DNA of 24,000 bases from Cellvibrionales bacterium UBA5860 (GCA_002431545.1 DJFY01000086.1:2848-26847); one strand, 5' to 3'. Shown: positions 1 through 17,722, counted from the stretch's first letter. Program-made: numbers and translations. Notes: generated by a model from the letters alone, not told the origin.

Positions 1-902
1 ATCTCGTAATACCGCTCGATAAACTGCACGCAATGGCTAAATGACCGGGCCACAAGAAGCAGTGGCACAACCATGATCAGCGGTTCAATCGGGTCTCCTA
101 ACCAGCCGACAAAACCAAAACCCCAAATCGCGGCGACCAGACTACTGACCACGGGCACGACAACGCCGACAATATTGCGCATGTACAGCACCAGCGACAA
201 CAACAAAGCTGTGCCGGTGATTGCAAAAATCGTTAGCATTTGTTTTTCGTAGTAGTACACCCAACCGGTGAGCATGGGCTGGCCCGCGACATAAATCTCA
301 TGAACATCGTCACGCTCAGCCTCTACAATATTTTCCTGAATAAAATTAAAAACCACGCCGTAATCCAGCAAACGCTCGATAAAAGTGGCCTGAATCAATG
401 TGGCGGTTTCATCCTGGGAAATAAGGAAAGTCTGACTACTGGGTGACTTTTTGACCCGCTCGATAAACTCGCGCATCTCCTCCGGCGTCTTGGGAGCCGA
501 ATCGCCCATTAACGGCTGACTATCGATTCCAAAGGGCGTGGCCTGCGCGTAGCGAGCTTTTTCCGTGCTGATGGAAAGTATCTGGTCGTGATCGACACCT
601 GGCGTGAGGTCGATATTGCGCGTCATATCCCAGACTTTCTGCAAAGTGTCCGGCTGATAGATCGATTTACCGTCAGTACGCTTGACCATGACGGTAACGG
701 TAAGAGGGTTGCCAAAATTCGGGTGATCCAGATAGGTTTCTACAAATGGATGACTCTTTGGCAGCAAGTCAGTAAATATGGTTTTTAATTCAACCTTGTA
801 TACACCGGCGGCGAAAAAGGCAGTAATAACGGTCATGATGAGCATTGACGCCCACCGGTGGTGCATGACCAATCTGGCTAGCCGATAACGAACGGTTTCC
901 AA
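1..902 (-). CDS. RND-superfamily (MMPL/HpnN-like) membrane transporter. About 300 N-terminal codons are present and the 3' end runs off the window.
   Basis: This ORF is absent from the supplied track because it is open at the window edge. Manual translation of the minus strand gives one uninterrupted frame from about 902 to 1: LETVRYRLARLVMHHRWASMLIMTVITAFFAAGVYKVELKTIFTDLLPKSHPFVETYLDHPNFGNPLTVTVMVKRTDGKSIYQPDTLQKVWDMTRNIDLTPGVDHDQ...YVAGQPMLTGWVYYYEKQMLTIFAITGTALLLSLVLYMRNIVGVVVPVVSSLVAAIWGFGFVGWLGDPIEPLIMVVPLLLVARSFSHCVQFIERYYE. The layout is TM1, a large periplasmic loop, then a TM2-4 block, as in MMPL/RND exporters and as in the 852-aa ORF at 10401. The start is TTG at 902 or ATG at 866, and an in-frame TAG lies at 926-924. 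The short + strand ORFs at 240-446 and 588-788 are antisense shadows of this gene. Confidence 0.7.
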   Translation of the reverse strand, partial: METVRYRLARLVMHHRWASMLIMTVITAFFAAGVYKVELKTIFTDLLPKSHPFVETYLDHPNFGNPLTVTVMVKRTDGKSIYQPDTLQKVWDMTRNIDLTPGVDHDQILSISTEKARYAQATPFGIDSQPLMGDSAPKTPEEMREFIERVKKSPSSQTFLISQDETATLIQATFIERLLDYGVVFNFIQENIVEAERDDVHEIYVAGQPMLTGWVYYYEKQMLTIFAITGTALLLSLVLYMRNIVGVVVPVVSSLVAAIWGFGFVGWLGDPIEPLIMVVPLLLVARSFSHCVQFIERYYE

Positions 903-1396: not shown

Positions 1397-2068
1397 CTAA
1401 CGCGAGATGCGTGCTTTCCAAACAACGACCAAACCGGCGGCAATCATCAGGCAAAACAAACCAGCACCCCAAAGCCAGCGCGGCATGGTTTCGTCCGCCC
1501 GCTCGAAAGTAGCACTGACTCCGGGAACACTCCAGAGGTCACCACTCCCGCGACCAACCACAAGCTGGGCCTTCATACCTTTTTCCATATGCTGAGCGAT
1601 GTCGCAATGTACAAGATAAGTCCTGTCATCGCTCGGCACAATAAAGGTGCCGCTTTGACGATGCCCTCCGGCAGCTTCCATATGAAACATGCCCTGGTCA
1701 TACAAGTATTTCGGCAATCCGTGCACCATCCACTGGTGGCGCACACGGTCTTGATTTATAAAGGTCACCGTTATTCGACTGCACGGCTCAACCTGCCATT
1801 GATGATCGCTAAAACCAAAAGTCGTGCCTGGGAAAGGTTTCGCATACTCAGTACCAGCAGTCACCTCGAACTGGTACTCCCGGCGTATTTCTGAACAATC
1901 CTCTGGCAACTTATCGGCATTCTCATTCATCACCATCCCTGTTTCGTCCATTTTCATGGCGTGATGATCGTTGTGGTGGTGATGCTCCATCTCTGGCTGC
2001 GCTTGGGTAATACCGGAGTAGAGCAGCAGCACACCGACGACAAAGTAACCGACGAACGAGCTAATCAT
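1397..2068 (-). CDS. Membrane-anchored type-1 cupredoxin (plastocyanin/azurin-like, CopI-like) with an N-terminal His/Met-rich tract. It is the last gene of the CuMMO operon.
   Basis: 223 aa. It has a signal peptide (MISSFVGYFVVGVLLLYSGITQA|QPE). A metal-binding tract follows at residues 27-47 (MEHHHHNDHHAMKMDETGMVM). Type-1 copper ligand pattern: RHQWMVHG (H111/H116), then VHCDIAQHMEKGM, which is C155-x4-H160-x4-M165. C-terminal hydrophobic helix WLWGAGLFCLMIAAGLVVVW. The start overlaps the upstream MCO stop by 8 nt. Confidence 0.8.
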   Translation of the reverse strand: MISSFVGYFVVGVLLLYSGITQAQPEMEHHHHNDHHAMKMDETGMVMNENADKLPEDCSEIRREYQFEVTAGTEYAKPFPGTTFGFSDHQWQVEPCSRITVTFINQDRVRHQWMVHGLPKYLYDQGMFHMEAAGGHRQSGTFIVPSDDRTYLVHCDIAQHMEKGMKAQLVVGRGSGDLWSVPGVSATFERADETMPRWLWGAGLFCLMIAAGLVVVWKARISR

Positions 2069-3767
2069 TGCGCTTCTTCACGAAGGTCCAGACCCACAAA
2101 AGACCCAGCAACAAGCCGATCACGATAGTCAAAGCCAAAATCCTAAGCGTTGAAATCGCGTACGGCTCGACGCTTTCGAGCAGGGACGTCGAACCATCCG
2201 CTGAATCTCTGCGATAAAACTCAGGTGCCAGAAAATTATTCCAGTCCAGACCAAAAGTCATCGGCCAACCATCATCCTGCAGGTATTTGTCGTAAACAAT
2301 TGCGCTGACATTCCCGCCCGGCCCCAGGCCGTTGGTGGTGACGCCTCGCTCCCGATGATCGTGCATCAACCAGACGCCAGGGCCATAGCTATGCAGACCA
2401 TCGTCCTTTGTCGACAAGTCCAGATCCACGCGCTGCGCCGACGCTATCCAAACCACATCGCGGGTAATACGGGCCGGCTCGGGATGCTCGACACCATCGT
2501 AGTGAGTGATAGTCACTTTATGTCCGTGCGTGTGGAGCGCCACTCCTTCGCTCCCGGCGTTTAACACGCGCAGCTTCACCCGCTCATCTGGGGCAGTCAC
2601 GATCAGTGAATCCCTGGCGGTATAGGGAAAAGAGCGTCCATTAAGCATGTAATATTCGAAATCCGCCTGGCTGATGTCGTATTGCCGGTGCACCCGCTGC
2701 GTGATAACACGTGGATCGTTACTCGACTGCACCGCTTCTCCGAGTTCTTTATCGAAGTCCTGATAATGAAGATCGTATTCTCGGTCGTAGCTTTCCTTGC
2801 TGGCCACGGAAGGGTGACGTACCAGCCCATCACCGATGTTAAAAGTCTGCAGCCAGTTGTTGGGCCGGTTCTCCTCGACTACGAACAAACCGTTTAAACC
2901 CATCAGGATGTGCGCCTGCACCTCTACGTGGCAGTGATAGAACATCGAGCCCGCCTGTCGCGGCTGCATCTCATAAGTGCGCTGCTTACCCGGCATCAAA
3001 GGCTTTTCGCTGGTGACGGGAACACCGTCATTACCTTCACCGTTCTCGTCCAGAAAGGGATGGTCTACCCCGTGAAAATGGATCGTATGCGGCATGTAAT
3101 GGGTATTCTCCAGCGTCACCTTGATCTGGTCGCCCTGCTCTACACGAATGGCCGGCGAAGGCATCCTTAACCCAGGCTGCGCAATCAGCGACTCAAAATT
3201 TTCCGTCGACATGCCAACCGACTTGGGGGCAAACACCCAAAACCCAGGTTTGATTCCGGGCGCGACTGAATACTGGACCACGGGTTCGTTGATATCTGGC
3301 GAGGCGCCGTTAAGTTCGAATACTTCCAAACGAATATGGATTTCGTCCGGGTCGCCATCCTGATCCAGGTCGCGACCCTTGACGACAGCGTCAGGAGACA
3401 GGCGGGCATTCATCAAGGTCATATGGCCGACGTTGTTCGTGCCTTTGACAAACGCCGCGATGGCGTGGGGATTATCTGCAAGGCAACCGGGTTCGGCCAG
3501 AATATCGATGCCGGCTACAGTCTGCGCCTTGCGCCAGCCCTTGAGATCAGGAGGACAGATATCGCCGATTTCATCGTAATCGGAATCTTGCAGCGGCCGG
3601 GCAGGAATAGTAGCAGGCGCTTCCCGATAGTCAGTAGCACCAAACTGCTTGTCATACCAGACGCGCCAGTCGCGCGGATACCATTGCCATGGTACTAACG
3701 CTACGATTAATAACGTCAGAACGACTAAGACAAGGGCTCGAACAAGGACTCTCAAAACTTCAGGCAA
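2061..3767 (-). CDS. Two-domain multicopper oxidase (NirK/2dMCO superfamily) with an N-terminal TM helix, a roughly 170-aa extension and a C-terminal TM helix.
   Basis: 568 aa. Four HxH pairs are present. H227-T-I-H230-F-H232-G is L3-type (HxxHxH). Y-H278-C279-H280-VEVQA-H286-IL-M289-GLNG is L4-type with the T1 Cys/His/Met. L-H412-T-H414-G-H is L1-type (HxHG). WLM-H469-D-H471 is L2-type. N-terminal TM is LVRALVLVVLTLLIVALV and C-terminal TM is LRILALTIVIGLLLGLLWVW. The start is TTG, 15 nt after the preceding stop. Confidence 0.85.
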   Translation of the reverse strand: MPEVLRVLVRALVLVVLTLLIVALVPWQWYPRDWRVWYDKQFGATDYREAPATIPARPLQDSDYDEIGDICPPDLKGWRKAQTVAGIDILAEPGCLADNPHAIAAFVKGTNNVGHMTLMNARLSPDAVVKGRDLDQDGDPDEIHIRLEVFELNGASPDINEPVVQYSVAPGIKPGFWVFAPKSVGMSTENFESLIAQPGLRMPSPAIRVEQGDQIKVTLENTHYMPHTIHFHGVDHPFLDENGEGNDGVPVTSEKPLMPGKQRTYEMQPRQAGSMFYHCHVEVQAHILMGLNGLFVVEENRPNNWLQTFNIGDGLVRHPSVASKESYDREYDLHYQDFDKELGEAVQSSNDPRVITQRVHRQYDISQADFEYYMLNGRSFPYTARDSLIVTAPDERVKLRVLNAGSEGVALHTHGHKVTITHYDGVEHPEPARITRDVVWIASAQRVDLDLSTKDDGLHSYGPGVWLMHDHRERGVTTNGLGPGGNVSAIVYDKYLQDDGWPMTFGLDWNNFLAPEFYRRDSADGSTSLLESVEPYAISTLRILALTIVIGLLLGLLWVWTFVKKRND

Positions 3768-3782
3768 TAAACTTGATCATTG

Positions 3783-4460
3783 TCATTTCGGCCGAAAAAT
3801 ATGGCTACGCCCGGCCCCATATATAAATATTGCACACAGCAAAAAAAGCAGCGCGAAATACTTTACATACTTTCCGTATTGCGGCGAGCCAACGGCGAAC
3901 GGAAATACAGACGTGTATTTCAACCCTGTTTCCAGGTGATGCGCATTGACAATGCCGATGTAGCCTCCCTCCTGGACGAAGTTGTAACGAACATTCATCA
4001 CGCCTTTCTGGAATTGCCGAGGCTCCTGATAATAAATAGTTGCCTTTTCTATCGCTTCGGGACCGCCTAAATCCGCATAGGTCGCGGTTACGCCGATGCT
4101 GTTAACATCGCGCACGATACGAAAATCAAGCTCCATGTTACGAAGTTCGTCGCTGATAAAATCAATCACAAATATACTTTCCGCGACCAACGGGATATCT
4201 TCGCAAAATTCCTGGGTCGCTCGCTGTTTTGGCAGGTAGCCTGTGAAATGCGCCTTGTAACGATCGATTTTTATAATACAGACGTCGTCTTCTACCGACA
4301 CTCCACCGTGCCCGAATACGGCGGGAGCAAATAGCGTGACGCTAACGAATAACGCCAACGCCGTTAAATAATGGGCAGGCCAGGAAAAAAAGTTCACAAA
4401 ATAGTCTTGATGCTTATGAAAACTGCCAGTGAGCGCACGGACCCATCCCATATGACTCAA
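3783..4460 (-). CDS. Bitopic periplasmic protein in the PmoD/AmoD position: signal/TM, a roughly 145-aa periplasmic domain, then a C-terminal TM. Homology to PmoD is unverified.
   Basis: 225 aa. The TTG start at 4460 overlaps the xmoB TGA stop (TTGA). An alternative ATG lies at 4451. Hydrophobic segment YLTALALFVSVTLFAPAVFG is followed by HGGVSVEDDVC, so the predicted mature N-terminus is His51. There are two Cys (C61, C86). C-terminal helix YFALLFLLCAIFIYGAG. The architecture matches what is described for PmoD, but I cannot confirm sequence homology by eye. Confidence 0.75.
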   Translation of the reverse strand: MSHMGWVRALTGSFHKHQDYFVNFFSWPAHYLTALALFVSVTLFAPAVFGHGGVSVEDDVCIIKIDRYKAHFTGYLPKQRATQEFCEDIPLVAESIFVIDFISDELRNMELDFRIVRDVNSIGVTATYADLGGPEAIEKATIYYQEPRQFQKGVMNVRYNFVQEGGYIGIVNAHHLETGLKYTSVFPFAVGSPQYGKYVKYFALLFLLCAIFIYGAGRSHIFRPK

Positions 4461-5713
4461 AAGAAAGTCGGCAGAATAGGGCCGCCAATTTCCTGATAAT
4501 AGCGCTTGCCGTCCTCGTCAAAGTAGAACAACAAACCAGCAAAGCGGCTGTCCGGGTCATTAATCAGCCCGGTCATACGGTACTGTTCCCATAATGCATC
4601 GGAGGCAACCATTTTCACCGGACGCGATGCTCCCGGCGGAATAACACTGTCACCGGTAACCGTGAGGCCATCAAAAGCTACCATTTCTTCTTCCGGATAA
4701 GTCGTCGGACCACTGATAGCAGAGTTGAGAAAACGAATGTTCGCCGTAAGGAACTCACCGATGCTATAGGCTTGATCGGAACGATTTGTCAACACCGCAT
4801 TGATCATCAAACTGCGCCCGGCCAATTCGTATCGCGCGCTCTCTACTTCGATATCAAGTTCACCCGTCGGCGGCGTTAGCCCGACCACATCCACCTTCCC
4901 TGTTTGCAACGGTATAGTAATTGGATATTTATTCTCCCCCCACAAATAGCCGCCCAAAATAACCGCCAGCGTTAGCGTGAAGAAGACACTGCTTACGACG
5001 AAATCTCGCTTGGTAAGAATTTCATCGGCTTTATCCTGCCCCATCTCTCTGACACGTATAAACCGCGGGATAAAAAGTTCACGCCGAGCCAGCCAATAAA
5101 CGATATAGGCAATCCCCAGGACGATCCAGACAACGTGCCAAACAAACACATCGCCCAAACCATAGGTCTCGAGATTCACAGTCTCACCGGTAAGCGTTGT
5201 GGCTTCATTCACAAAAGGTACCGGGCCGCCGGAATGATCTTCAACCTCCACCCACGTGCCCTTGCCGACCAAAGAACCCGCATCTTTTACGTTTAAAAGC
5301 GAGTGAACATGGTAGCGACCTGGAATTCGAGCCCGCATGATAATGCGGTATTCGTACACTTTGCCGAGCTCGAAAGCTGTCGAACGCACCATGGGCACTT
5401 CGTTTACAGATGCGTCGAGCTTGATAAAAGTAGGCCCGGGCACCCCGATATTGAGGTAAACAGTATCTTCAGGACTCGGCAACTGATTGGGCCATAGCTC
5501 AGAGGTATAAAACTTCCCGGTCACTGTGACGATATCGCCTACCTTGACCTTGAGTGGCGCAACATTTAAATCGAACCAGTGCACGGTCCGCATACGCATA
5601 CTCGCCAATTGGGCGCGCTCACCGTGAGCAACCACATCGCCTGCGAATAGAGACAGCAACAACACCAAGACGAGATTTACCGTTGCAGAACGCGCTGAAA
5701 AAACAACTTTCAT
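4457..5713 (-). CDS. pmoB: Copper membrane monooxygenase subunit B (PmoB/AmoB family).
   Basis: 418 aa. A signal peptide ends ...GDVVA|HGERAQLASMRMRTVHWFD (compare PmoB HGEKSQAAFMRMRTIHWYD). This gives an N-terminal His30 plus GRYH135VH137SLLNV, the His/HxH CuB ligand set. Two internal TM helices (VFVWHVVWIVLGIAYIVYWL, VVSSVFFTLTLAVILGGYLW) sit between two soluble domains, as in PmoB. Confidence 0.93.
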   Translation of the reverse strand: MKVVFSARSATVNLVLVLLLSLFAGDVVAHGERAQLASMRMRTVHWFDLNVAPLKVKVGDIVTVTGKFYTSELWPNQLPSPEDTVYLNIGVPGPTFIKLDASVNEVPMVRSTAFELGKVYEYRIIMRARIPGRYHVHSLLNVKDAGSLVGKGTWVEVEDHSGGPVPFVNEATTLTGETVNLETYGLGDVFVWHVVWIVLGIAYIVYWLARRELFIPRFIRVREMGQDKADEILTKRDFVVSSVFFTLTLAVILGGYLWGENKYPITIPLQTGKVDVVGLTPPTGELDIEVESARYELAGRSLMINAVLTNRSDQAYSIGEFLTANIRFLNSAISGPTTYPEEEMVAFDGLTVTGDSVIPPGASRPVKMVASDALWEQYRMTGLINDPDSRFAGLLFYFDEDGKRYYQEIGGPILPTFF

Positions 5714-5737
5714 ACTCTCTCCCCCTTCAAATCCCGC

Positions 5738-6538
5738 TTACGCGATGCGCTTGGCATACTTGTCCAGTCCATTAATCCACTTACCCAGCAGCAAAAACAA
5801 GGCATAAACGACTATGCCGACGAGGCCCGCAAAGACAGCAGTCAAGGGCGTCACCGAACCACCAAAAGTTCGCAACGTCGACTCTTCGATAATTCTTAGG
5901 TATTCGGGAGTCGTTGTCCGAATATATTGGAAGCCCATCAGGTCTGCCATTGACAAAAGCATGCCATTGAATTCCACCGGCACTTTGGAGGCCGCGAAGA
6001 TAGGCCAGTTAAGCGGCCACACCAGCGCTCCGAAAAGCCCACCGCCGATAATGCAGGAAATGATCAGGCTACGCGTCATAATCAAACTGCAATCGAGCAA
6101 AATACCCAAGCCAATGTATGTAGACGCGGGAACAAACGACATCGGGAAGTAGGTGAACTCGTAAAAATTCAGGTAGCGGCTCAGCCACGACGTCAGACAC
6201 AACAATGTCGTTACGGCCGTAGCGACTACGGGCAACCGCAAGCGGTACCAAAGCCCATAAGCAAGCGGCCCGATAAACATCAGCAGGGTCATTGGGGCTA
6301 CGACTGGCCACCAACGGCGATCCCGCCAGTCAATCCAGTAATCCCAGTCCCCGGCCGTTAGAGTAAACTGTATCTGAACACCCAGGGCCAAGAACGAAAA
6401 AAGCACCAAGATAAATATGCCATCAAACCGCCGGTAGAGCTTCATGGCTTTGGGATTGTCAAGGGACTTGACATCCAGCCTTCGCTGTCGAACCTCGTTT
6501 TCTGACATCAATTCTGTGGAAACAGACTGTTCACTCAT
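5738..6538 (-). CDS. pmoA: Copper membrane monooxygenase subunit A (PmoA/AmoA family).
   Basis: 266 aa. Hallmark motifs are LTAGDWDYWIDWRDRRWWP and MGFQYIRTTTPEYLRIIEESTLRTFGG (compare [25 protein letters not shown]). It is a polytopic membrane protein. SD GAGGTG precedes the ATG. Confidence 0.93.
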   Translation of the reverse strand: MSEQSVSTELMSENEVRQRRLDVKSLDNPKAMKLYRRFDGIFILVLFSFLALGVQIQFTLTAGDWDYWIDWRDRRWWPVVAPMTLLMFIGPLAYGLWYRLRLPVVATAVTTLLCLTSWLSRYLNFYEFTYFPMSFVPASTYIGLGILLDCSLIMTRSLIISCIIGGGLFGALVWPLNWPIFAASKVPVEFNGMLLSMADLMGFQYIRTTTPEYLRIIEESTLRTFGGSVTPLTAVFAGLVGIVVYALFLLLGKWINGLDKYAKRIA

Positions 6539-6590
6539 AGCAACACCTCATATACCCGCTGCGGGATATACCGGAAATTAGCGCTTTTTG

Positions 6591-6627
6591 GAAAAATTAT
6601 CCCCGCAACCAAAAGCTTGCGGGGATA
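6591..6627 (-). terminator. Intrinsic-terminator-like hairpin in the xmoC-xmoA intergenic spacer. It could be an attenuator or an RNA-processing/stability element.
   Basis: In the mRNA sense the sequence is UAUCCCCGCAA-GCUUUUGG-UUGCGGGGAUA, an 11-bp perfect stem with an 8-nt loop (6598-6627). It is followed immediately by AUUUUUC (6597-6591). It lies 50 nt after the xmoC stop and about 55 nt before the xmoA start. Confidence 0.55.
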
Positions 6628-6676
6628 AAGGTAGGGATTCACCGCTGCCCTCAAGGCAAAGGAATCAGGTCATAGC

Positions 6677-7486
6677 TCAGATAACCTGACGCTCCTCCGT
6701 AGATGCCGTACTTTCTGTCGCGGTGGTCTGAGCAATCAGGCGGCCCATGTTAGTAAAGATTTGCACACCCAGGGGCACCAGGAAAAACAGCGACCAGCCC
6801 AGGAAAACAAAACCCCAGTGCACGGGCGCGGCGAACAACTCTTCAGCATAGAAGAAAGTATGCCCCCACTCGTTGAAGCCGTAGTTGGGCATGATCATAA
6901 AGATACCGAGCACTACGCACAGGAAGGGGATCGATATTTTATTCATAAAAGCCGGAATTCTGGTATGAGCCCAAATGAAGGTTGGAATGAGAAACGCGGT
7001 AAGCGCGGGTAAAGCAAAGTAGAAGATAAAGATATGTGTTGGCGTGAAGTCCGTATCGCGGATCGTGACCTGATGCCAGGCAGCATCCGACTCGACCGCA
7101 TTGGTGGCAATTGCAGCCACCCAAATCCCAATTACCGTAAGAAAGCTCAGCAATTTCCAGTAACGGGAAAGCTCCAACTCAGGGGAGATTGCGCTAGCAT
7201 CCCGCTCCCGCGTCAGCCATACGTATACCGAGGTACAGACGGTAAACAATCCGAGAAAGAGCACTTCCCCGTAGAGCACGGGCATCCAGTACTTCTGAAA
7301 CTCTGGAGAGTAGAAGTCAGTGCCAACGGAGAAAGCCATAGTATTGAGGTATATGCGGTATGCGAGACCGATACCCAACAGTATTGAAGCTAAAATATAG
7401 ACAATTCGATTGCGCCTGAAATGGCCAGCCAGCTTGCTTTCCGCCCCGGAATCCAGCGCGACTGTTGCAGTATTAGTTTGTGCCAT
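6677..7486 (-). CDS. pmoC: Copper membrane monooxygenase subunit C (PmoC/AmoC family).
   Basis: 269 aa. Motifs are FYSPEFQKYW, ES-D134-AAW-H138-QVTIRDTDFTPT-H151 (D-x3-H-x12-H) and F-N205-EWG-H209-TFFYAEELFAAPV-H223-WGF (N-x3-H-x13-H). The spacings match the CuC (D156/H160/H173) and CuD (N227/H231/H245) ligand sets of Methylococcus capsulatus Bath PmoC as I recall them. Both sets show the same 22-residue offset. SD AGGGG precedes the ATG. Confidence 0.93.
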   Translation of the reverse strand: MAQTNTATVALDSGAESKLAGHFRRNRIVYILASILLGIGLAYRIYLNTMAFSVGTDFYSPEFQKYWMPVLYGEVLFLGLFTVCTSVYVWLTRERDASAISPELELSRYWKLLSFLTVIGIWVAAIATNAVESDAAWHQVTIRDTDFTPTHIFIFYFALPALTAFLIPTFIWAHTRIPAFMNKISIPFLCVVLGIFMIMPNYGFNEWGHTFFYAEELFAAPVHWGFVFLGWSLFFLVPLGVQIFTNMGRLIAQTTATESTASTEERQVI

Positions 7487-7579
7487 GATTGGATACCCCT
7501 GTTTTAACTTCGACGCTTATTTAATATTCGTCTGTTCGAATATGCCTTTTTCAGGACAGGCCGGTTTTGTTCTTCTCTA

Positions 7580-7617
7580 CTAGCCTTACAAAGCAATTCT
7601 AGCCTTGTAGAGCAATC
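7580..7617. repeat. Tandem direct repeat, 2 x 19 nt, 94-131 nt upstream of xmoC.
   Basis: CTAGCCTTACAAAGCAATT (7580-7598) is followed immediately by CTAGCCTTGTAGAGCAATC (7599-7617). Identity is 15/19. Confidence 0.8.
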
Positions 7618-7802
7618 GTCAAACCGGAGAGCCTGTTTGATGGCAACGAATATACGTGGCGCCCGTCACACTGCGTAGTGCCAATCTTGACAACAGTGTT
7701 GCAGAAAGTGACACAAAGCTCGAGGCAAGAACATGCCAATCATTCGTACTAGATATATCGCTACGACGTCTTGCCACCCTTCATAACCATGAAGCATATT
7801 GC

Positions 7803-7846
7803 CGAGTGCGTTTCTTATATTTATCGAGCGTGTTTCTTATATTAAT
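7803..7846. repeat. Tandem direct repeat, 2 x 22 nt, in the xmoC upstream region.
   Basis: CGAGTGCGTTTCTTATATTTAT (7803-7824) and CGAGCGTGTTTCTTATATTAAT (7825-7846) are 19/22 identical. They share a perfect 12-mer, GTTTCTTATATT, at 7810-7821 and 7832-7843. Confidence 0.8.
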
Positions 7847-7866
7847 TTATAGCCTTTCTGTGACAA
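7839..7866 (-). promoter_or_regulatory. Candidate sigma70-type promoter for the CuMMO operon, implying a 5' leader of roughly 340 nt.
   Basis: On the minus strand, TTGTCA (7866-7861) is followed by 16 nt and then TAATAT (7844-7839). Alternatively it is followed by 19 nt and then TATAAG. The -10-like elements lie inside the 22-nt repeat units. This is a by-eye match only, with no TSS data. Confidence 0.3.
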
Positions 7867-7915
7867 TTCGCCTTGTATCATACGGCTTGCCCTTCATGCC
7901 GCTCCCTGCTTGCCG

Positions 7916-8791
7916 CTATGCCACTCCCAGCAAGGAAACGATTGCTGCCACATCACCGCGGGATTCATCCGATATGGACTCAATATCTGAACCACCCAGA
8001 TCCAACCGACGAAACGTGGGAGTCGTTTCGTAGTTGATTCCCTGTATACCATCAAGTATGTCCTGGCTTACCAGGGAAGTCAGGTAATTCGCAACCAGAA
8101 CAACGTCGGCGATATCGGCAAACTCCGGATCCTCGCGTTGCAGGGCCTCAACCTCATCGGCAAATAACCGAACCGACGTCGCCAGCCCCCAGTTTCGCAA
8201 AATAGACAACCGAGCTCGCCCGTGCCAGTCCAGCATAATCTGTCGCAAACCGTCAATGTCGTCGCACAGATCGGGGAATTGGTCTTCAGCGCGCACCATG
8301 AGGTAAATTTTACCTACGTCATACATCAAACCTGCCAGCATGGCATCGTCCGCATTCAGATGGCGATAACGTTTGGCAACGCAATAAGAATAAGCGGCAA
8401 CATAGATCGTATGCCGCCACAATGTCTGAAAATGAGACCTCAACTTGCCGGCGGCCCTTTCCAACAAGACCTGGCGCAGAGCAATCGACAACACGATGGA
8501 TCCGGCCATCTTGAAGCCCATGCGCGCGATCGCGGTAGGTAAATTACTGATTTGCGCACCGGGCACGGCGCCCATCGCGACGGAGTTGGCAACTTTTAAC
8601 AGGGTTGCAGCAACGATGGGGTCGGCACCCGCCACCGCAGCCACTTGATCAGCTGAAGCTTCGGGATCATCCAATACACTCTTGATTCGAAACGGGATGT
8701 CGGGAAAAGATGGCAATTCGATTTCGCCATCTGCCAGCTCCTGGCCCAACAACTGGAGGAACTCAAATCCACGTTCGCTGAGATCAGCCAC
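7916..8791 (-). CDS. HDOD domain-containing signalling protein.
   Basis: 291 aa. The N-terminal half is typical of HDOD domains: LPSFPDIPFRIKSVLDDPEASADQVAAVAGADPIVAATLLKVANSVAMG...IARMGFKM...LWRHTIYVAAYS...AGLMYDVGK. Confidence 0.85.
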   Translation of the reverse strand: MADLSERGFEFLQLLGQELADGEIELPSFPDIPFRIKSVLDDPEASADQVAAVAGADPIVAATLLKVANSVAMGAVPGAQISNLPTAIARMGFKMAGSIVLSIALRQVLLERAAGKLRSHFQTLWRHTIYVAAYSYCVAKRYRHLNADDAMLAGLMYDVGKIYLMVRAEDQFPDLCDDIDGLRQIMLDWHGRARLSILRNWGLATSVRLFADEVEALQREDPEFADIADVVLVANYLTSLVSQDILDGIQGINYETTPTFRRLDLGGSDIESISDESRGDVAAIVSLLGVA

Positions 8792-8960
8792 ATGAATCTC
8801 GCTTTATTCTTTCCTTTTCGGCTATCTTATACCTATTAAGAAACCACCCCAAGGCCTTTTCTCTACCTGGCGCAACAATACGCCTGAAGACGTGTGCCGC
8901 GATTGGCCACCTCGAACCCTTAAATCTAGCTATTACGCAACAGCGCGATGATGGGGTTTA

Positions 8961-9914
8961 TTAAGCCTGATGCAACCAGTTCTGCAAGTTTACCGCCGCA
9001 ATCTCGACCAGCCGCTGCCGCGCCTCGCGCGCACCCCAGGCACAATGGGGCGTAATAATCAGGTTGGGGACCGCGCCGTCCAGAAGGATGTGGTCGGCCG
9101 GCGGCGGCTCCTGATCGAGCACATCCAGACCGGCTCCGCCGATCACGCCTTCCTTGAGCGCCCGCGCCAACGCTTGCGAATCGACAATCTCGCCACGGGC
9201 ACAATTAATCAGCAAAGCGTCGTCGCGCATCAGCGCGAACTCAGGCGCAGAAATCAATCGGCGCGTATTGTCCTGCAACGGGCAGTGAATGGTCACAATG
9301 TCAGACATGCGCAGAAAGTCGGCAAATAATTCGCGCTCGACATCCTTGGCCTGCGGCTGCCACCCCGGCAACTGGGCGACTACGACACGCATGCCAAAAG
9401 CGCGGGCAACTGCGGCCACAGCCTGCCCCAGGGTACCGTAGCCAATTATTCCCATTGTCAGGCCATCCAGCTCTCTCACCGGAAAACCAAGCAGGCAGAA
9501 ATCCTCGCTTGCCGACCACCCGCCGTCGTTCACTGCTGCGGCGTAAGCCGGGAGTTTCGTAGTCAACGCCAAAATCAACGCGAAGACGTGCTGCACAATT
9601 GCGGGAGTGCCATAATTGACGATACGGGTGACGACAATTTCCCGGCGCTTTGCCTCAGCCATGTCGATCACGTTGGTACCGGTAGCGAGCACACCGATAT
9701 AACGCAAACCTGTCGCCGCAGCCATTTGCTCAGCCATCACAGGGGCCTTGTTGGTCAATACCAGATCAGCATCGCGTATACGCGCTACGATATCTTCCGG
9801 CTTGGAACGCCCGTGAACACACCACTCTACTTGCGGATTATCCAGCAGGGGAGACAGGTCCAGGTCTTCAGGGTACAGAGTATCCAGGTCGAGAATTACG
9901 CCGTTAAGCATCAA
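8961..9914 (-). CDS. D-isomer-specific 2-hydroxyacid dehydrogenase (glycerate/hydroxypyruvate reductase-like), NAD-binding.
   Basis: 317 aa. Rossmann motif GIIGYGTLGQAVA. Catalytic-triad context INCARG...GLDVLDQEP...ITPHCAWG. Confidence 0.88.
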   Translation of the reverse strand: MMLNGVILDLDTLYPEDLDLSPLLDNPQVEWCVHGRSKPEDIVARIRDADLVLTNKAPVMAEQMAAATGLRYIGVLATGTNVIDMAEAKRREIVVTRIVNYGTPAIVQHVFALILALTTKLPAYAAAVNDGGWSASEDFCLLGFPVRELDGLTMGIIGYGTLGQAVAAVARAFGMRVVVAQLPGWQPQAKDVERELFADFLRMSDIVTIHCPLQDNTRRLISAPEFALMRDDALLINCARGEIVDSQALARALKEGVIGGAGLDVLDQEPPPADHILLDGAVPNLIITPHCAWGAREARQRLVEIAAVNLQNWLHQA

Positions 9915-10027
9915 ACACGAGCTCCAAAGCGATCACTGATATCAAACGGCAATGCATCGCCATCGGCTTGTAGTATGATCAACTCAAGCACCAGTAAAAA
10001 GAAAAATCTACCACTTGGAGATCCGCG

Positions 10028-10312
10028 TTGACACCCGCCAAGCCCCGCGTCGAGGTTCACTACTGCCCTGCTTGCCACTGGTTGCCACGCTCCACCTGGA
10101 TGGCTCAGGAAATACTTTACACATTTGGCGAAGAACTCGGCGAGGTGGCACTCGTGCCGGCCAGCGAAAGTGGCAGATTTACCATTCTATTGGACGGAGA
10201 GATCATCTGGGATCGTCGACAGGAGGGTGGCTTCCCCGATGTCAAGACGCTCAAACGCAAGTTGCGCGATGCTATCGCACCCGATCGCGCGCTCGGGCAT
10301 CTGGACAAGTAA
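10028..10312 (+). CDS. Rdx-family (SelW/SelT/SelH-like) small thioredoxin-fold protein, Cys-containing form.
   Basis: 94 aa with a TTG start. Family signature VHYCPACHWLPRSTWMAQEIL...GRFTILLDGEIIWDRRQEGGFPDVKTLKRKLRDAI, with a CxxC redox motif. Confidence 0.8.
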   Translation: MTPAKPRVEVHYCPACHWLPRSTWMAQEILYTFGEELGEVALVPASESGRFTILLDGEIIWDRRQEGGFPDVKTLKRKLRDAIAPDRALGHLDK

Positions 10313-10400
10313 ACCGACGGCTCCGCTGGCATAATGCCGCCGCGTTTTGTAAAGCTAAATCCACAACAGACACTGACCACAAAAAACAATAAGGAATGAC

Positions 10401-12959
10401 ATGACTGATCGCCTGATCGCGGTTTATGACCGCATCATTCTCGAACAGCCAAAACTCGCCCTTGCCCTGGTTTTACTGCTTGCAGCCGTACTGGCTATAG
10501 GCTTACCTAATTTCAAGCTCGATGCCTCGGCGGACTCGCTGACCCTCGAACACGACACTGACCTCGACTATTTCCGGGAAATCAACCAACGCTACGGCAG
10601 TGGCGATTTTCTGGTGGTGATGTATACGCCGCACAACGGCGATCTATTCTCCGATCAGGCTTTGCAAACACTGGATGCACTCGGCAAAGACCTGAAAAAA
10701 ATCGATGGCGTCACGAGTGTCAATTCGCTGGTCACCGTACCGTTGTTATACAGCCCGAAAGTGTCCGTCGAATCCCTGCAGGAAGAACAACGCACCCTGC
10801 TGACACCCGGTGTCGACCGCGAGGCCGCCAAGCGCGAATTCCATACCAGCCCAGTCTACCGAAACCTGATTCTGAGCCCGGACGGTAATACTACCGCCGT
10901 TTTAGCCACCATCGCCCAGGACCAGCGCTACATCGACCTGGTACGCCGGCGCGACGCTCTGCGTCTCAAACGCGACCAGGAAGGATTGAACGACAGCGAA
11001 AAGGCCGAACTTGAGCAAGTCAGCCAGACATTCCTCGACTATCGCACCGAGCGCGCCGCTATCGATCGGGCGCGGGTAGAGGCGGTTCGCCAGCTGATGG
11101 GCCGTTACCGCGATCGCGCGGAGGTCTTTCTTGGCGGCCCCAGCATGATTACCGCCGACATGATCGACTTCGTGCGCGGCGATCTGCAGATTTTCGGCGC
11201 CGGCATTACGCTGTTCATTATCCTGACGCTAAGCCTGATATTTCGCCAGCTCCTCTGGGTTGTCTTACCCCTGGCAACCTGCGGCCTGACCATCACCATC
11301 ATGCTGGGCTGGTTGAGCTGGATCGACTGGCGGCTGACCGTGATCTCTTCCAATTTTGTAGCGCTTCTCCTGGTACTGACGATGGCGGTAACCATCCATT
11401 TAATCGTTCGCTACAGAGAACTACACACTGCGCACCCCGAAGCGGACCAGCATCAACTGGTTCGCGATACCGTATACCTAATGGCCAGACCCTGCATTTA
11501 TACGGTACTGACAACGATGGTGGCCTTCGCCTCGCTGGTAGTCAGCGATATTCGTCCCGTCATCGATTTCGGCTGGATGATGACTATTGGCCTACTGGTC
11601 ACCCTGTGCCTTGTATTTGTCGTCATTCCCGCCGGTATGTTAATCGCCGGGAAAAGCGCCGGGAGTCAGACCAACCACACGACCCACTTGCCAGAATTTT
11701 TTTCCGATGTAACAGAGCGACGCGGCGGCCTGGTACTCATTCTCTCGGCGGTACTGGGCGGGCTGGCGATGTTTGGCATCGCCCGCCTGGAAGTCGACAA
11801 CCGGTTTATCGATTATTTCAAAACTGACACCGAGATCTATCAGGGGCTTTCCGTCATCGATCAGAAGCTCGGCGGTACGACACCCTTGGACATTGTCATT
11901 CAGGCTCCGGCCTTCGCACAGGATTTAGAAACAAGTGACAGCGAAGAGCCGGATCCATTTGCCGACGACCCACTTGAAGACGACCCTTTTGCAGAAGATC
12001 CATTTGCCGATAGTTTTGGCGACGATCCCTTTGCCGAACCCGACCCCAATAAAAAGATCAATAGCTACTGGTTTACCCGCGCCGGCCTTGAAGATCTGGA
12101 AAAAATTCAGCGTTTCCTGGACGATTTACCCGAAATCGGCCGGATAGACTCATTGGTCACCGCCTTTCATGTCGCTAACGATCTCACCGGGCGCCGGCTT
12201 AACGACTTCGAGCTGGCCTTCATGCGGCAAAGCCTATCGCCCGATCTAAACAACTTCCTGATCGCCCCATATCTCGACGACGAAAGTAACGAAACCCGCC
12301 TGACCATGCGGACAATCGAGACCGGTACCTCGCTCAATCGACAGGAACTACTAAACGAAATCGAAGGTTTTCTAATCGACGAAATGGGCATCGAGCCCGA
12401 GCGCTATCGGCTCAACGGTTTGCTCGTGCTTTACAACAATATGCTGCAAAGCCTATTTAGTTCGCAGATCATGACCCTGGGCGCGGTCTTCCTGGGCATC
12501 ATGCTGATGTTTTTGGTGTTGTTCCGCTCTCTGAGCCTGGCGCTCATCGCCATTGTGCCGAACTTGCTGGCTGCCTCCGTCGTGCTCGGCGTGATGGGTC
12601 TGGCCGGTATTCCCCTGGATATGATGACGATAACGATCGCATCGATCACGGTCGGCATCGGCGTCGACGATACCCTGCACTATATTTACCGTTTTCGCGA
12701 GGAATTCCCCCGGGATCGCAACTACATCGCCGCCATGCACCGCAGCCACGCGTCTATCGGCATTGCGATGTACTACACCTCTGTCGTTATCATCGTCGGT
12801 TTTGCCGTACTGATACTGTCGAACTTCATGCCCTCAGTCTATTTTGGTCTGCTGACCGGGCTAGCCATGCTGGTGGCCCTGGTGGCGGCACAGACCCTGC
12901 TGCCCAAATTACTGCTCATTTTCAAACCCCTCGGCACTGAAAACCAGCCCTCGATTTGA
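10401..12959 (+). CDS. RND-superfamily (MMPL/HpnN-like) exporter, 12-TM with two periplasmic loops. The second loop carries an acidic DPF-repeat insert.
   Basis: 852 aa. SD AAGGA precedes the ATG. There are two TM bundles (about residues 270-420 and 690-840) and large loops. The start of the second loop carries an acidic tract, SDSEEPDPFADDPLEDDPFAEDPFADSFGDDPFAEPDP. Confidence 0.9.
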   Translation: MTDRLIAVYDRIILEQPKLALALVLLLAAVLAIGLPNFKLDASADSLTLEHDTDLDYFREINQRYGSGDFLVVMYTPHNGDLFSDQALQTLDALGKDLKKIDGVTSVNSLVTVPLLYSPKVSVESLQEEQRTLLTPGVDREAAKREFHTSPVYRNLILSPDGNTTAVLATIAQDQRYIDLVRRRDALRLKRDQEGLNDSEKAELEQVSQTFLDYRTERAAIDRARVEAVRQLMGRYRDRAEVFLGGPSMITADMIDFVRGDLQIFGAGITLFIILTLSLIFRQLLWVVLPLATCGLTITIMLGWLSWIDWRLTVISSNFVALLLVLTMAVTIHLIVRYRELHTAHPEADQHQLVRDTVYLMARPCIYTVLTTMVAFASLVVSDIRPVIDFGWMMTIGLLVTLCLVFVVIPAGMLIAGKSAGSQTNHTTHLPEFFSDVTERRGGLVLILSAVLGGLAMFGIARLEVDNRFIDYFKTDTEIYQGLSVIDQKLGGTTPLDIVIQAPAFAQDLETSDSEEPDPFADDPLEDDPFAEDPFADSFGDDPFAEPDPNKKINSYWFTRAGLEDLEKIQRFLDDLPEIGRIDSLVTAFHVANDLTGRRLNDFELAFMRQSLSPDLNNFLIAPYLDDESNETRLTMRTIETGTSLNRQELLNEIEGFLIDEMGIEPERYRLNGLLVLYNNMLQSLFSSQIMTLGAVFLGIMLMFLVLFRSLSLALIAIVPNLLAASVVLGVMGLAGIPLDMMTITIASITVGIGVDDTLHYIYRFREEFPRDRNYIAAMHRSHASIGIAMYYTSVVIIVGFAVLILSNFMPSVYFGLLTGLAMLVALVAAQTLLPKLLLIFKPLGTENQPSI

Positions 12960-13155
12960 CAGCCCGCCAATCGCCATCTAGTTTTTATTTCAAACGGCAT
13001 TTGTTGCAGGCAGCAAGCGACGCAAAACATGGTGCTCTCTGAGACGGACGCCAGCAGCGCACCGCCGGGCGGAGCACCATTGACCGCAAAACCGAGGACC
13101 ATTCGCAGTAAAACAACCACTGACGCAGCACTGGACTGACAGGAGCACATACATC

Positions 13156-13362
13156 ATGGCGACCACAGACCTGGATGCCCGGATAAAAGAGCTCGGGCCC
13201 GAACAATCCCTGACCATTCCAAGGGACGAATTCCGCAGTATCTGTGACGAAGAAGACAAGGTCGTTTATCTGACGATCGCGCGGCGTATGGCAAAGGCCA
13301 ATAAACGCTGGGTCACAATCGAGGAAGATAACCTGATCTTTGGTCCGCCTCCTGAAAAATAA
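13156..13362 (+). CDS. Small hypothetical protein (68 aa).
   Basis: AGGAG lies 10 nt upstream of the ATG. The protein is hydrophilic and not low-complexity. A 10-bp hairpin lies about 48 nt downstream of the stop. I recognise no family. Confidence 0.5.
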   Translation: MATTDLDARIKELGPEQSLTIPRDEFRSICDEEDKVVYLTIARRMAKANKRWVTIEEDNLIFGPPPEK

Positions 13363-13409
13363 GCGATATTCTGGAATATAAAGCTACCCTACTCGGCTTC
13401 CAGCCAGCC

Positions 13410-13437
13410 TCTTTGGGCCTGTGTTAGGGCCCAAAGA
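13410..13437 (+). terminator. Stem-loop downstream of the 68-aa ORF. It may be a terminator but lacks a U-tract.
   Basis: TCTTTGGGCC-tgtgttag-GGCCCAAAGA is a 10-bp perfect stem. It is followed by ttccggg, which is not T-rich. Confidence 0.35.
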
Positions 13438-13616
13438 TTCCGGGCTCCACACCCTTTGCTGTAGAGTGATTGCCAGTGCCGGGACCTGGCACAAGCCCGG
13501 TCTCGACCCGCAACCCGGCCCGCCCGCAGCCAACCGTCTAGGTATCGTTACGGCTTTACCTTATAATCCAGCGCCTTTGTCATCCGTCATCACCTCACGC
13601 GCTGGTGTGTCTAGCT

Positions 13617-16076
13617 ATGCAGGAAGATTATCAGCCCCAAAATATCGAGCGCTCTGTTCAGCAGTACTGGCAGCAAGCGCAGTCATTCAAGGCCCGAGAG
13701 GATCACGCCAGGGAAAAATACTACTGTCTGGCAATGTTCCCCTACCCCAGTGGGCAACTGCACATGGGGCACGTGCGCAATTACACCATCGCCGATGTCG
13801 TCGCCCGCTACCAGCGCATGCTTGGCAAGAATGTGTTGCAGCCGATGGGCTGGGACGCGTTCGGATTGCCCGCGGAAAACGCCGCCATCAAGAATAAAAC
13901 CGCGCCAGCCAAATGGACTCGCGAAAATATCCGCTACATGAAAACCCAGTTGCAATCCCTCGGCTTCGCCTACGACTGGGACCGTGAACTCGCCACCTGC
14001 GATGCAGATTACTACCGCTGGGAGCAATGGTTCTTCACACGGCTCTACGAAAAAAACCTGGTCTACCGCAAGACCAGCGCCGTCAACTGGTGCCCGAACG
14101 ACCGAACGGTGCTAGCCAACGAGCAGGTGATCGACGGCTGTTGCTGGCGCTGCGACACGCCCGTCGAACGCAAGGAGATTCCCCAGTGGTTTATTCGCAT
14201 CACCGAGTACGCCGATGAATTACTCGCGGGACTGGACGCGCTGGACGACTGGCCCGAGCAAGTGCGCACCATGCAACGCAACTGGATCGGTAAAAGCCGG
14301 GGCATCACCATGCGCATCGCGCTGGAATATCCAGTCGCCGGAGCAGCGAACTTCGAGGTCTATACGACCCGCCCCGACACCGTCATGGGTATCACCTATT
14401 TCTGTCTCGCCGCCGAACACCCGATCTCCATCGAACTTGCCAAAAGCGATAAAGAACTGGGCGCCTTTCTCGAACGCTGCAAACGGCAATCCGTTGCCGA
14501 AGCCGATATGGCCACGATGGAAAAAGACGGTCGGGATACCGGACTGTTTGCCCGGCACCCGATCAGTGGCGAAAAACTACCCGTATGGGTGGCCAACTAT
14601 GTGCTGATGGACTACGGCTCGGGTGCTGTGATGGCGGTCCCGGCTCACGACCAGCGGGACTGGGAATTCGCGCAGAAATTCCGGCTGCCCATCAAACAGG
14701 TCATCGAACCGCTTGACAATACAGATTGCGACATCAGCTCGGCAGCCTTTATCGAAAAAGGCCGTTTGATTGCATCGGGTGATTTTGACGGTCTCGATTT
14801 CGACGGCGCTTTCACCGCTATAGCGCAAACACTGGCCGAAGACGATCGCGGCCGTGTCACCACCAATTACCGTCTGAAAGACTGGGGCGTGTCGCGCCAA
14901 CGCTACTGGGGCGCACCCATCCCCATGATCTACGACGACAAGGGTATGGAGATTCCGGTACCAGCGGACAAGCTGCCGGTGCTATTGCCGGAAGACGTGA
15001 CCATCGATGGCGTGCACTCGCCCCTCAAGACGGACGATAACTGGAACAAAGTCACTCACGACGGCAGCGTCCTGGCTCGGGAGACGGACACCTTCGATAC
15101 TTTCATGGAATCTTCCTGGTATTACGCCCGCTTCACCTGCCCCGATGCCGACACAGCGATGCTGGACCGGCAGCGCGCCGACTACTGGTTACCGGTCGAC
15201 CAATATATCGGCGGCATTGAACACGCCATCCTGCATTTACTGTATGCGCGCTTTTTTCACAAATTGATGCGCGACGAAGGCCTGGTTTCGTCCGACGAAC
15301 CTTTCACTAAACTGGTATGCCAGGGCATGGTGCTAAAGGACGGCAGCAAGATGTCCAAGTCCAAAGGCAACACCGTCGATCCGCAGAGCCTGATCGACCG
15401 TTACGGGGCCGACACCGTGCGCCTGTTTACCATGTTTGCCGCTCCGCCGGAGCAGTCCCTGGAGTGGTCAGACGAAGGCGTAGCCGGCGCCTCGCGTTTT
15501 CTGCGCAGATTGTGGAAGACGCTATATGAGCACTGCCGGGCGCCTACCCCCGGGACTCTCGACACCGACAAGCTAAGCGCCGCCGAGCGAGATGTCCGAC
15601 GCAAGACCCACGCCACCATCGCCAAGGTCAGCGACGATTTCGGGCGACGGCAAACCTTCAACACGGCCATAGCCGCCGTGATGGAATTACTTAACGAACT
15701 CAATAAACTCGATGCGGACTCGCCCCAGGCGGGTGCCATCGCTCAGGAAGCACTGGAAACAGCAGTGCTGCTGTTAGCGCCAATTACGCCACATCTCTGT
15801 CACGTCGCCTGGCATGCACTGGGGCACGAAGACCCTGTCATTGATGCGACCTGGCCACAGGTCGACGAGTCTGCGCTGGTGCAGGACCACATCAAGATGG
15901 CGGTTCAGGTCAACGGTAAAGTACGGGCGCAAATCGAAGTGGCGAACGGCACTCCGCAGGAAGAAATCGAACAAACCGCCATTGCCGACACCAACGTCCA
16001 ACGCTTTACCGACGGGAAAAGCATCCGTAAAGTTATCGTTGTCCCGGGCCGCCTGGTCAATATCGTAGCGGGCTGA
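13617..16076 (+). CDS. leuS: Leucine--tRNA ligase.
   Basis: The sequence matches LeuS throughout: [19 protein letters not shown]...[16 protein letters not shown] (HIGH motif) ...KMSKSKGN (KMSKS motif). The ATG at 13617 matches the canonical MQEQY-type N-terminus. The track ORF starts 4 codons earlier, at GTG 13605. Confidence 0.97.
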
Positions 16077-16117
16077 GGCAGGCTACAAGAGCTCTTTAAT
16101 CACACCGGAACCCCTTC

Positions 16118-17672: not shown

Positions 17673-17722
17673 CCCGAGTTTTTACTCCGAAAAATATCGA
17701 CCATAAAAGGACACCCATAACC

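Follow-up and report, generated by a model that had tools for sequence, protein, structure and literature searches.

Where does a copper membrane monooxygenase (CuMMO) get its copper and its electrons, and do the genes that follow it take part in the supply? The question is raised by a 24,000-nt stretch of DNA from Cellvibrionales bacterium UBA5860 (GCA_002431545.1, DJFY01000086.1:2848-26847), referred to below as the window, in which six co-directional open reading frames (ORFs) on the minus strand (7486→1397) encode the three monooxygenase subunits (xmoC, xmoA, xmoB), a PmoD-like protein (orf4), a multicopper oxidase (MCO) and a small cupredoxin, in that order. We know of no settled account of how CuMMOs, be they particulate methane monooxygenases (pMMOs), ammonia monooxygenases (AMOs) or hydrocarbon monooxygenases, obtain copper and electrons, nor of a function for PmoD, to our knowledge the only accessory protein shown genetically to matter. 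A first-pass annotation had proposed that the last three genes form a module dedicated to the CuMMO and serving electron delivery or copper delivery and oxidation. We find that the trio is very probably a conserved, functionally linked accessory cassette. Our best explanation overall, held with some reserve, is that a particulate hydrocarbon monooxygenase (pHMO) cluster is joined here to an ancient cassette that manages the redox state of copper and supplies the metal to membrane cuproenzymes, the main rival being electron delivery.

A scan of one genome per GTDB species with an MCO profile revealed 299 relatives, and the best 80 of these 299 loci were compared. The PmoD-like, MCO and cupredoxin genes are adjacent in that order in 80/80 loci wherever the contig extends far enough (tblastn). 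The trio has xmoCAB directly upstream in 28 loci, adjoins an alternative aa3-type cytochrome oxidase (cox) operon in 13 and has neither neighbor in 14 (no CuMMO and no cox within at least 4.5 kb on both sides); the remaining 25 contigs are too short. The alternative cox operon encodes CoxB with cytochrome c domains, CoxA, two CoxC, CoxD and CtaB. The trio is thus a real conserved companion of CuMMO genes (28/80), and it is not dedicated to them as first supposed, since 27 of the 55 loci with enough flank (13 cox-adjoining, 14 with neither) carry it without a CuMMO within ~9 kb. The six-gene order of the window recurs in 28 species-representative genomes and in 14 metagenome contigs, which places the arrangement far beyond chance.

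A neighbor-joining tree of the MCOs contains one split that separates all 28 CuMMO-linked proteins from all 27 cox-linked or solitary ones (100/100 bootstraps). The CuMMO-linked side comprises Porticoccaceae, other Gammaproteobacteria, one alphaproteobacterium and Binatia, with XmoB proteins 25-77% identical to that of the window. The pairwise identities of all three accessory proteins rise and fall with those of XmoB (Spearman 0.86-0.93), and their copper ligands are invariant across all contexts. Identity among the linked CuMMOs falls from 90% to as little as ~25%, over Gammaproteobacteria, Alphaproteobacteria and Binatia; given this spread and the 100/100 split of the MCO clades, the linkage is old and not a product of chance. 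The cassette is an ancient autonomous unit that stands downstream of CuMMO genes in one clade, and beside an alternative cox operon or alone in the sister clade.

These data bear on a caveat of the first-pass annotation, that the MCO-cupredoxin pair might be common in genomes lacking any CuMMO and represent a generic copper-resistance cassette beside xmoCAB by chance, with no functional relation to the monooxygenase. The first half of the caveat is borne out, as the same trio occurs without a CuMMO in at least 27 loci from many families, and an MCO joined to small copper-binding proteins follows the logic of pco/cop systems. Chance placement is contradicted by the 100/100 clade split and the co-divergence with XmoB, by direct adjacency in the 28 species representatives and 14 metagenome contigs across phyla, and by spacers that are tight or overlapping. 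The window contains no CopB-, CopD- or CusRS-type resistance genes, the MCO scores far under the CopA and CueO cutoffs (see below), and a plasmid search with the MCO returned only ~30%-identical haloarchaeal MCOs and no plasmid-borne relatives. We consider a resistance cassette placed here by chance highly improbable.

To view the linkage from the side of the monooxygenase, we examined XmoB-seeded metagenome loci with at least 4 kb downstream (n = 44). The trio lies downstream in 14, an MCO and cupredoxin lie upstream of xmoC in 2, pmoD is present by itself in 3 and no cassette gene is found in 25. Twenty of these 25 carry distant CuMMOs (XmoB ≤44% identity) and 5 belong to a group at 43-48%, whereas the full trio is present in 7/9 close relatives (XmoB ≥57% identical, at least 4 kb downstream). 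These counts make the cassette a feature of particular CuMMO clades and not of CuMMOs generally. In the two more distant CuMMO loci with an MCO and cupredoxin upstream of xmoCAB (L137, 3785-6029; L155, 3787-5956), we also observed a weak PmoD-like match on the opposite strand.

Individual loci differ in what surrounds the trio. L001 carries the same six genes plus an MMPL gene. L002 has xmoAB-pmoD-MCO-cupredoxin and no xmoC, with genes for a pyrroloquinoline quinone (PQQ) dehydrogenase and a hydrolase preceding xmoA; the order xmoA-xmoB-pmoD-MCO-cupredoxin without xmoC directly upstream is also observed in L102, L107, L115 and L118. In L084, a Thiotrichaceae metagenome-assembled genome (MAG; 1935-18357), the trio lies between a canonical cox operon (CtaG, SURF1, CtaA) and a second one (CoxB-cytochrome c, CoxA, two CoxC, CoxD, CtaB) that is followed by msrB and msrA, and in L085 it stands alone. 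Three Binatia loci (L068, 5364-5936; L071, 5272-5880; L073, 5273-5881) have a second PmoD-like gene upstream of xmoC besides the copy after xmoB.

The monooxygenase and its accessory proteins

The first three products belong to the PmoC/A/B families, as first annotated, with Pfam E-values of 6e-62 (AmoC), 2.5e-73 (AMO) and 2e-123 (Monooxygenase_B). The NCBIfam scores of the A and C subunits fall under the equivalog cutoffs, which marks the CuMMO as a member of a divergent clade. The CuB, CuC and CuD ligands of solved pMMOs are nevertheless all intact in alignments. XmoB matches M. capsulatus PmoB (3RGB, E 2.5e-106) and keeps AHGE (His33 equivalent) and HVH (His137/139 equivalents), and XmoC, aligned with PmoC (3RFR), keeps the CuC ligands D-x3-H-x12-H (Asp156/His160/His173 in PmoC) and the CuD ligands N-x3-H-x13-H (Asn227/His231/His245). 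The xmoA product is identical to HBD13431.1 from a Porticoccaceae MAG, and HBD13430.1 was recovered by the same exact-sequence match. We assign the cluster, by sequence, to the Porticoccaceae-type pHMOs (xmoC, then xmoA-xmoB), hydrocarbons being the predicted substrate class. This CuMMO clade has been described as the pHMO of 'Ca. Reddybacter'/B045 and implicated in methylcycloalkane use (bioRxiv 10.1101/2022.11.07.515388).

The orf4 product has no Pfam or NCBIfam match and was identified by a family profile and by structure prediction. A profile of 21 homologues matches PmoD (6CPD) among PDB sequences with an E-value of 3.3e-19, and an AlphaFold2 (AF2) model (pLDDT 82) matches the same structure in Foldseek (E 1e-12, TM-score 0.87). 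The protein is a PmoD/AmoD homologue; treated at first pass as an unrecognized member of the trio, it is in fact the canonical pmoCAB follower that the same annotation had listed. Its hydrophobic segments span residues 30-54 and 195-222, and C61 and C86 are invariant among homologues. The motif C61-x9-H71...C86, with Lys69 at the position of the CuA Met ligand (Met49), places it in the Cx9HxnC class, and it does not match the CuA-forming Cx7MxHxnC motif of the in-operon subclass. All three accessory proteins therefore carry copper motifs, and not only the MCO and the cupredoxin as first noted.

PmoDs of the Cx9HxnC class bind copper, form no CuA and usually lie outside pmo operons, and PmoDs were found only in CuMMO-encoding genomes (Fisher et al. 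2018, PMC6189053). The window locus has a CuMMO, and the 27 loci without one within ~9 kb carry orthologues of the cassette. Deletion of PmoD causes a copper-dependent growth defect (PMC6189053), and a 2026 AMO review still calls the role of PmoD/AmoD open (PMC13058606). In the window protein, H51 directly follows the predicted signal-peptidase site (VFG/HGGV), and an AxA-type site with this His occurs in nearly all cassette PmoDs, whatever their context. The mature protein probably starts with His, and a histidine-brace-like copper site is possible. The Foldseek matches ranking after PmoD are AA10 lytic polysaccharide monooxygenases, with weak scores, a hint in the direction of such a site.

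The next protein, judged by its domains and motifs, is a two-domain MCO of type C with the type-1 site in domain 1. It matches Pfam Cu-oxidase_3 and Cu-oxidase_2, and its closest PDB matches (E ~1e-36) are the two-domain MCOs 2ZWN (mgLAC) and 3G5W (Nitrosomonas europaea oxidase). The four HxH pairs and type-1 Cys claimed at first pass are all present and are invariant in 20 homologues (H230xH232, H278-C279-H280..H286..M289, H412xH414, H469xH471). The HCH..H..M motif in domain 1 and the four HxH, contributing the eight His of the trinuclear cluster, align with 2ZWN. Three better-known families were rejected: CopA/PcoA (TIGR01480; 50.7 bits against a cutoff of 479, two domains instead of three, no twin-arginine motif), CueO (NF008205; 36.5 bits against 525) and NirK (TIGR02376; 44.3 bits against 296). 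An N-terminal extension (residues ~36-140) carries invariant C71 and C95 and an acidic D-x-D-x-D-G-D-P-D-E motif, and has no family match.

These homologies admit a reading in which the MCO oxidizes a by-product or alternative substrate (hydroxylamine or NO, phenolic or quinol products, Mn(II) or Fe(II)), with the cupredoxin and PmoD as its redox partners and the cassette traveling with any respiratory or oxygenase operon that profits from it. Among solved homologues the nearest, 3G5W, comes from an ammonia oxidizer, one homologue bears the source label 'manganese oxidase' (a label only), and in 14 loci the cassette is on its own. An archaeal MCO oxidizes NH2OH (PMC13058606). A single by-product is hard to reconcile with a clean CuMMO-linked clade that spans very different CuMMO sequences, probably with different substrates, and no substrate-binding features were identified in the MCO; we regard such a small-molecule oxidase as improbable.

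The last protein gives only sub-threshold Pfam and NCBIfam matches, and its family profile finds nothing significant among PDB sequences. Foldseek with its AF2 model (pLDDT 78) retrieves auracyanin (2AAN, 6e-7) and domains of two-domain laccases. The C-x4-H-x4-M motif (C155-x4-H160-x4-M165) and the HHHHNDHH/Met tract noted at first pass are present. Invariant residues are H111, M114, H116, H129, H154-C155-D156, H160, M165, C58, C96, M38, G44, V46 and M47; they include a type-1 set (H111, C155, H160, M165) with MCO-type spacing, a Met-rich N-terminal motif and a Cys pair. The predicted fold thus points to an orphan, MCO-derived type-1 cupredoxin with a Met/His-rich N-terminal tail, and copper binding is predicted. 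We rejected a split-off third MCO domain, since the MCO already has all eight trinuclear His and a type-1 site. The spacing H111-x2-M-x-H116 ... H154-C155 parallels the type-1 plus type-2 half-site of NirK; a further possibility is that the cupredoxin bears a NirK-like type-1 and interface type-2 copper pair and is a living single-domain relative of the proposed MCO/NirK ancestor.

Such a protein brings electron delivery into view. The cupredoxin and/or PmoD would shuttle electrons to the active site of the CuMMO, perhaps from a periplasmic PQQ alcohol dehydrogenase or from cytochrome c, and in the sister clade the same carriers would feed the alternative oxidase. The type-1 ligands are invariant, the fold matches auracyanin, which carries electrons while anchored in the membrane, and PQQ dehydrogenase genes lie near several CuMMO-linked loci; the cox-linked clade also resembles pairings of a cupredoxin with an oxidase such as AcoP/rusticyanin, which occurs with cox in Acidithiobacillus. 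PmoD itself has been proposed as an electron-transfer partner (PMC6189053, PMC13058606). However, the PmoD of the window has no Met ligand for a CuA site and its class reportedly forms no CuA, the MCO with its full trinuclear cluster would draw electrons off to O2 in competition with both CuMMO and Cox, and the conserved Met/His-rich tail is atypical of pure electron carriers. On these grounds we think electron delivery a rather unlikely function, though the first to be considered after copper handling.

A candidate role in copper handling

We favor copper handling, and put forward this specific mechanism only tentatively. The three single-pass, periplasm-facing copper proteins would form a module at the membrane surface that handles the redox chemistry of copper and delivers the metal to membrane cuproenzymes. 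Periplasmic Cu(I) would be captured by the Met/His tail of the cupredoxin. The MCO, possibly via the type-1 center of the cupredoxin, would set the Cu(I)/Cu(II) state using O2, a step analogous to that of PcoA/CopA working with PcoC/CopC. The PmoD-like protein would then load the CuMMO at its periplasm-facing sites or, in the sister clade, the oxidase at CuA/CuB.

This role is preferred because a CuMMO and a haem-copper oxidase share a need for copper insertion on the periplasmic side and not a substrate or donor, because an O2-reducing MCO with its full set of sites acts as an electron sink, in line with the logic of cuprous oxidases, because the cupredoxin has its conserved Met/His tail, and because the PmoD class binds copper without forming CuA while loss of PmoD gives a copper-dependent defect. 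Cuprous oxidases such as CueO and PcoA are examples of O2-reducing MCOs that act as electron sinks. Of the two functions first suggested for the trio, copper delivery and oxidation is retained, and pure electron delivery is disfavored by the complete O2-reducing MCO.

Several observations weigh against this interpretation. The proposed roles of all trio members are drawn from sequence, genomic context and predicted folds. The MCO is not a canonical cuprous oxidase, since it falls well short of the cutoffs for CopA, CueO and PcoA and has no twin-arginine signal, and the classical task of a type-1 cupredoxin is to carry electrons. In 14 loci there is no CuMMO or cox nearby as a candidate client, and in L084 the canonical chaperones CtaG and SURF1 already accompany the first cox operon. 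In three loci (L095, L096, L110) xmoCAB-pmoD is followed by at least 4.3 kb in which neither an MCO nor a cupredoxin gene occurs; two of them (L095, L096) are fairly close relatives, with XmoB 60% identical, so even there the trio can be dispensed with. A single six-gene transcript is also doubtful, given a conserved hairpin after xmoC (see below).

A bolder version of copper handling would have a widespread three-protein machine on the periplasmic face of the membrane, which controls whether copper is oxidized or reduced and loads it into CuMMOs in one clade, or into an alternative A-type haem-copper oxidase in the other. We consider this version unlikely; if true, it would supply partners and a definite task for PmoD, a protein of open role since 2018, and PmoD-family proteins would not be restricted to CuMMO-encoding organisms. 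The PmoD-MCO-cupredoxin partnership, co-inherited with CuMMOs across phyla, supplies candidate partners and allows copper and electron supply to be told apart by direct tests on three reactions: oxidation of Cu(I), hand-off of copper and electron transfer from the cupredoxin to the enzyme. That a sister clade lies next to a cytochrome oxidase operon suggests a general service to membrane copper enzymes and questions the view of PmoD as specific to methane and ammonia oxidizers. The hosts are Porticoccaceae, which abound in the sea as degraders of hydrocarbons, and Gammaproteobacteria of sediments, so the module may be of consequence for the breakdown of oil and the cycling of copper.

Layout and transcription of the cluster

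The six ORFs, their coordinates and their five junctions (in order, +138, +24, -4, +15 and -8 nt) agree with the first-pass annotation, on the minus strand (Table 1). The overlaps read in the junction sequences are TTGA between xmoB and orf4 and the 8-nt ATGATTAG between the MCO and cupredoxin genes. Of the two TTG starts claimed for the trio, that of the MCO gene stands and that of orf4 is uncertain: an ATG lies 9 nt downstream (at 4451) and is the start of an identical public 222-aa protein (P0001). With the ATG start, a +5 nt gap replaces the -4 overlap with xmoB. A 19-residue hydropathy scan confirmed that every accessory protein has two hydrophobic segments, one at either end.

Table 1. 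Features of the CuMMO cluster and its immediate surroundings in the window.
Feature	Position	Strand	Description
xmoC, CuMMO subunit C	6677..7486	-	269 aa, ATG start; Pfam AmoC
xmoA, CuMMO subunit A	5738..6538	-	266 aa; Pfam AMO
xmoB, CuMMO subunit B	4457..5713	-	418 aa; Pfam Monooxygenase_B
orf4, PmoD/AmoD family	3783..4460	-	225 aa, TTG start; signal peptide, cupredoxin-like domain, C-terminal transmembrane helix
Two-domain MCO, membrane-tethered (predicted)	2061..3767	-	568 aa, TTG start; N-terminal transmembrane segment, ~100-aa extension, two cupredoxin domains, C-terminal transmembrane segment
Single-domain type-1 cupredoxin (predicted)	1397..2068	-	223 aa, ATG start; signal/transmembrane segment, His/Met-rich tract, C-terminal transmembrane helix
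MMPL/RND-type transporter gene, 5' part	1..902	-	TTG start at 902; rest beyond window edge
Terminator-like hairpin and T-run, xmoC-xmoA spacer (138 nt)	6597..6628	-	scan; 12-bp stem
Sigma-70-like promoter match, 429-nt gap upstream of xmoC	7839..7866	-	consensus scan only, 9/12; weak

The hairpin in the xmoC-xmoA spacer consists of a GC-rich stem (TTATCCCCGCAAGC...GCGGGGATAA) followed by TTTTT. Its stem is kept with compensatory changes in 10 related Porticoccaceae-type loci, and two distant loci (L048, L050) have an unrelated hairpin and T-run at the same position. A scan of the window found no comparable terminator-like signal between xmoB and the accessory genes. The hairpin may attenuate transcription or stabilize the xmoC mRNA. 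Together with the loci that have no xmoC, it suggests that the core unit runs from xmoA to the cupredoxin gene, with xmoC attenuated or separate.

The MMPL gene begins 494 nt after the cupredoxin gene, with an AGGGGGA Shine-Dalgarno sequence before its TTG, and the window holds its first 300 codons. Over these 300 aa it is 80-84% identical to the gene after the cupredoxin in 15 related loci (tblastn), and it counts as a conserved seventh member of the Porticoccaceae-type cluster. In those related loci MMPL is followed by a BNR/Ycf48-like gene. On the plus strand, opposite to the operon and ~3 kb upstream of it, lies a second MMPL-family gene (852 aa; 10401-12959), with genes for an HDOD-domain protein (7916-8791) and a 2-hydroxyacid dehydrogenase (8961-9914) in between. 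This upstream flank is unlike that of related loci, where acyl-CoA dehydrogenase, MoxR AAA, VWA and AraC genes stand. Ordinary chromosomal genes, among them leuS, lptE, holA and one for a lipid A acyltransferase, make up the remainder of the window, and Rfam and tRNA scans of the window gave no match.

Relation to known systems

The Porticoccaceae pHMO of 'Ca. Reddybacter'/B045 belongs to the same CuMMO clade as the enzyme of the window, and a Ca. Reddybacter MAG among our loci (L015) has the identical six-gene order. The paper describing it treats pmoCAB phylogeny and substrate only, and leaves the operon, pmoD, multicopper oxidase and cupredoxin unmentioned (bioRxiv 10.1101/2022.11.07.515388). 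The Binatota paper only notes pmoD. In the literature on CuMMO or pmoCAB with a multicopper oxidase or cupredoxin, as far as it could be searched and with incomplete coverage, we found no description of the cassette, in keeping with the first-pass opinion that the six-gene architecture had not been described.

For the MCO, the nearest models are the type-C two-domain enzymes 2ZWN and 3G5W, which likewise have a pair of cupredoxin domains, four HxH and a type-1 HCH..H..M motif in domain 1. The form expected is a homotrimer with trinuclear clusters at the subunit interfaces. The two known enzymes are soluble, whereas the cassette MCO has transmembrane helices at both ends and the ~100-aa extension with two Cys and DxDxDGDPDE. 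The N. europaea enzyme (NeMCO, 3G5W) lies in an ncgABC-nirK cluster and not beside amo, whereas the cassette MCO of the window lies beside xmoCAB. PcoA/CopA with PcoC/CopC, and CueO, likewise combine an MCO, small beta-sandwich copper-binding proteins and Met/His-rich Cu(I)-binding sequences; however, these MCOs have three domains and are Tat-exported and soluble, whereas that of the window has two domains, is membrane-tethered and has no CopB, CopD or regulator genes beside it.

A conceptual parallel exists in archaeal CuMMO lineages, in which blue copper proteins lie beside amo/pmo as well as coxAB clusters (Diamond et al. 2022, PMC9038741). There too, one- and two-domain cupredoxins adjoin both CuMMO and terminal oxidase loci, but they belong to different families, with no PmoD and no fixed three-gene cassette. 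MCO genes have also been reported near a different PmoD class (Cx8MxnC), outside the pmo operons of methanotroph genomes (Fisher et al. 2018, PMC6189053). That neighborhood shares the proximity of PmoD and MCO with the window, but the authors described neither a partner cupredoxin nor a link to cox nor a fixed set of three genes.

The closest likeness is to the extended operons pmoCAB-pmoD-copC-copD-(pCuAC) of alpha-methanotrophs, amoCABED of beta-ammonia-oxidizing bacteria and amoCABD of Nitrosococcus (Fisher et al. 2018, PMC6189053). In these as in the window, the CAB genes are followed by a PmoD-family gene (signal peptide, cupredoxin-like domain, C-terminal transmembrane helix) and then by periplasmic copper proteins. 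The followers are CopC, CopD and PCuAC in the extended operons and a two-domain MCO and a type-1 cupredoxin in the window; the in-operon PmoD is of the CuA-forming Cx7MxHxnC or of the Cx8MH type there and of the Cx9HxnC type here; and the hosts are methane or ammonia oxidizers there and a hydrocarbon degrader here. Judged by gene content and protein family, the cluster is a variant of the extended CuMMO operon, in which known protein families are assembled into an undescribed, widely distributed three-gene cassette.

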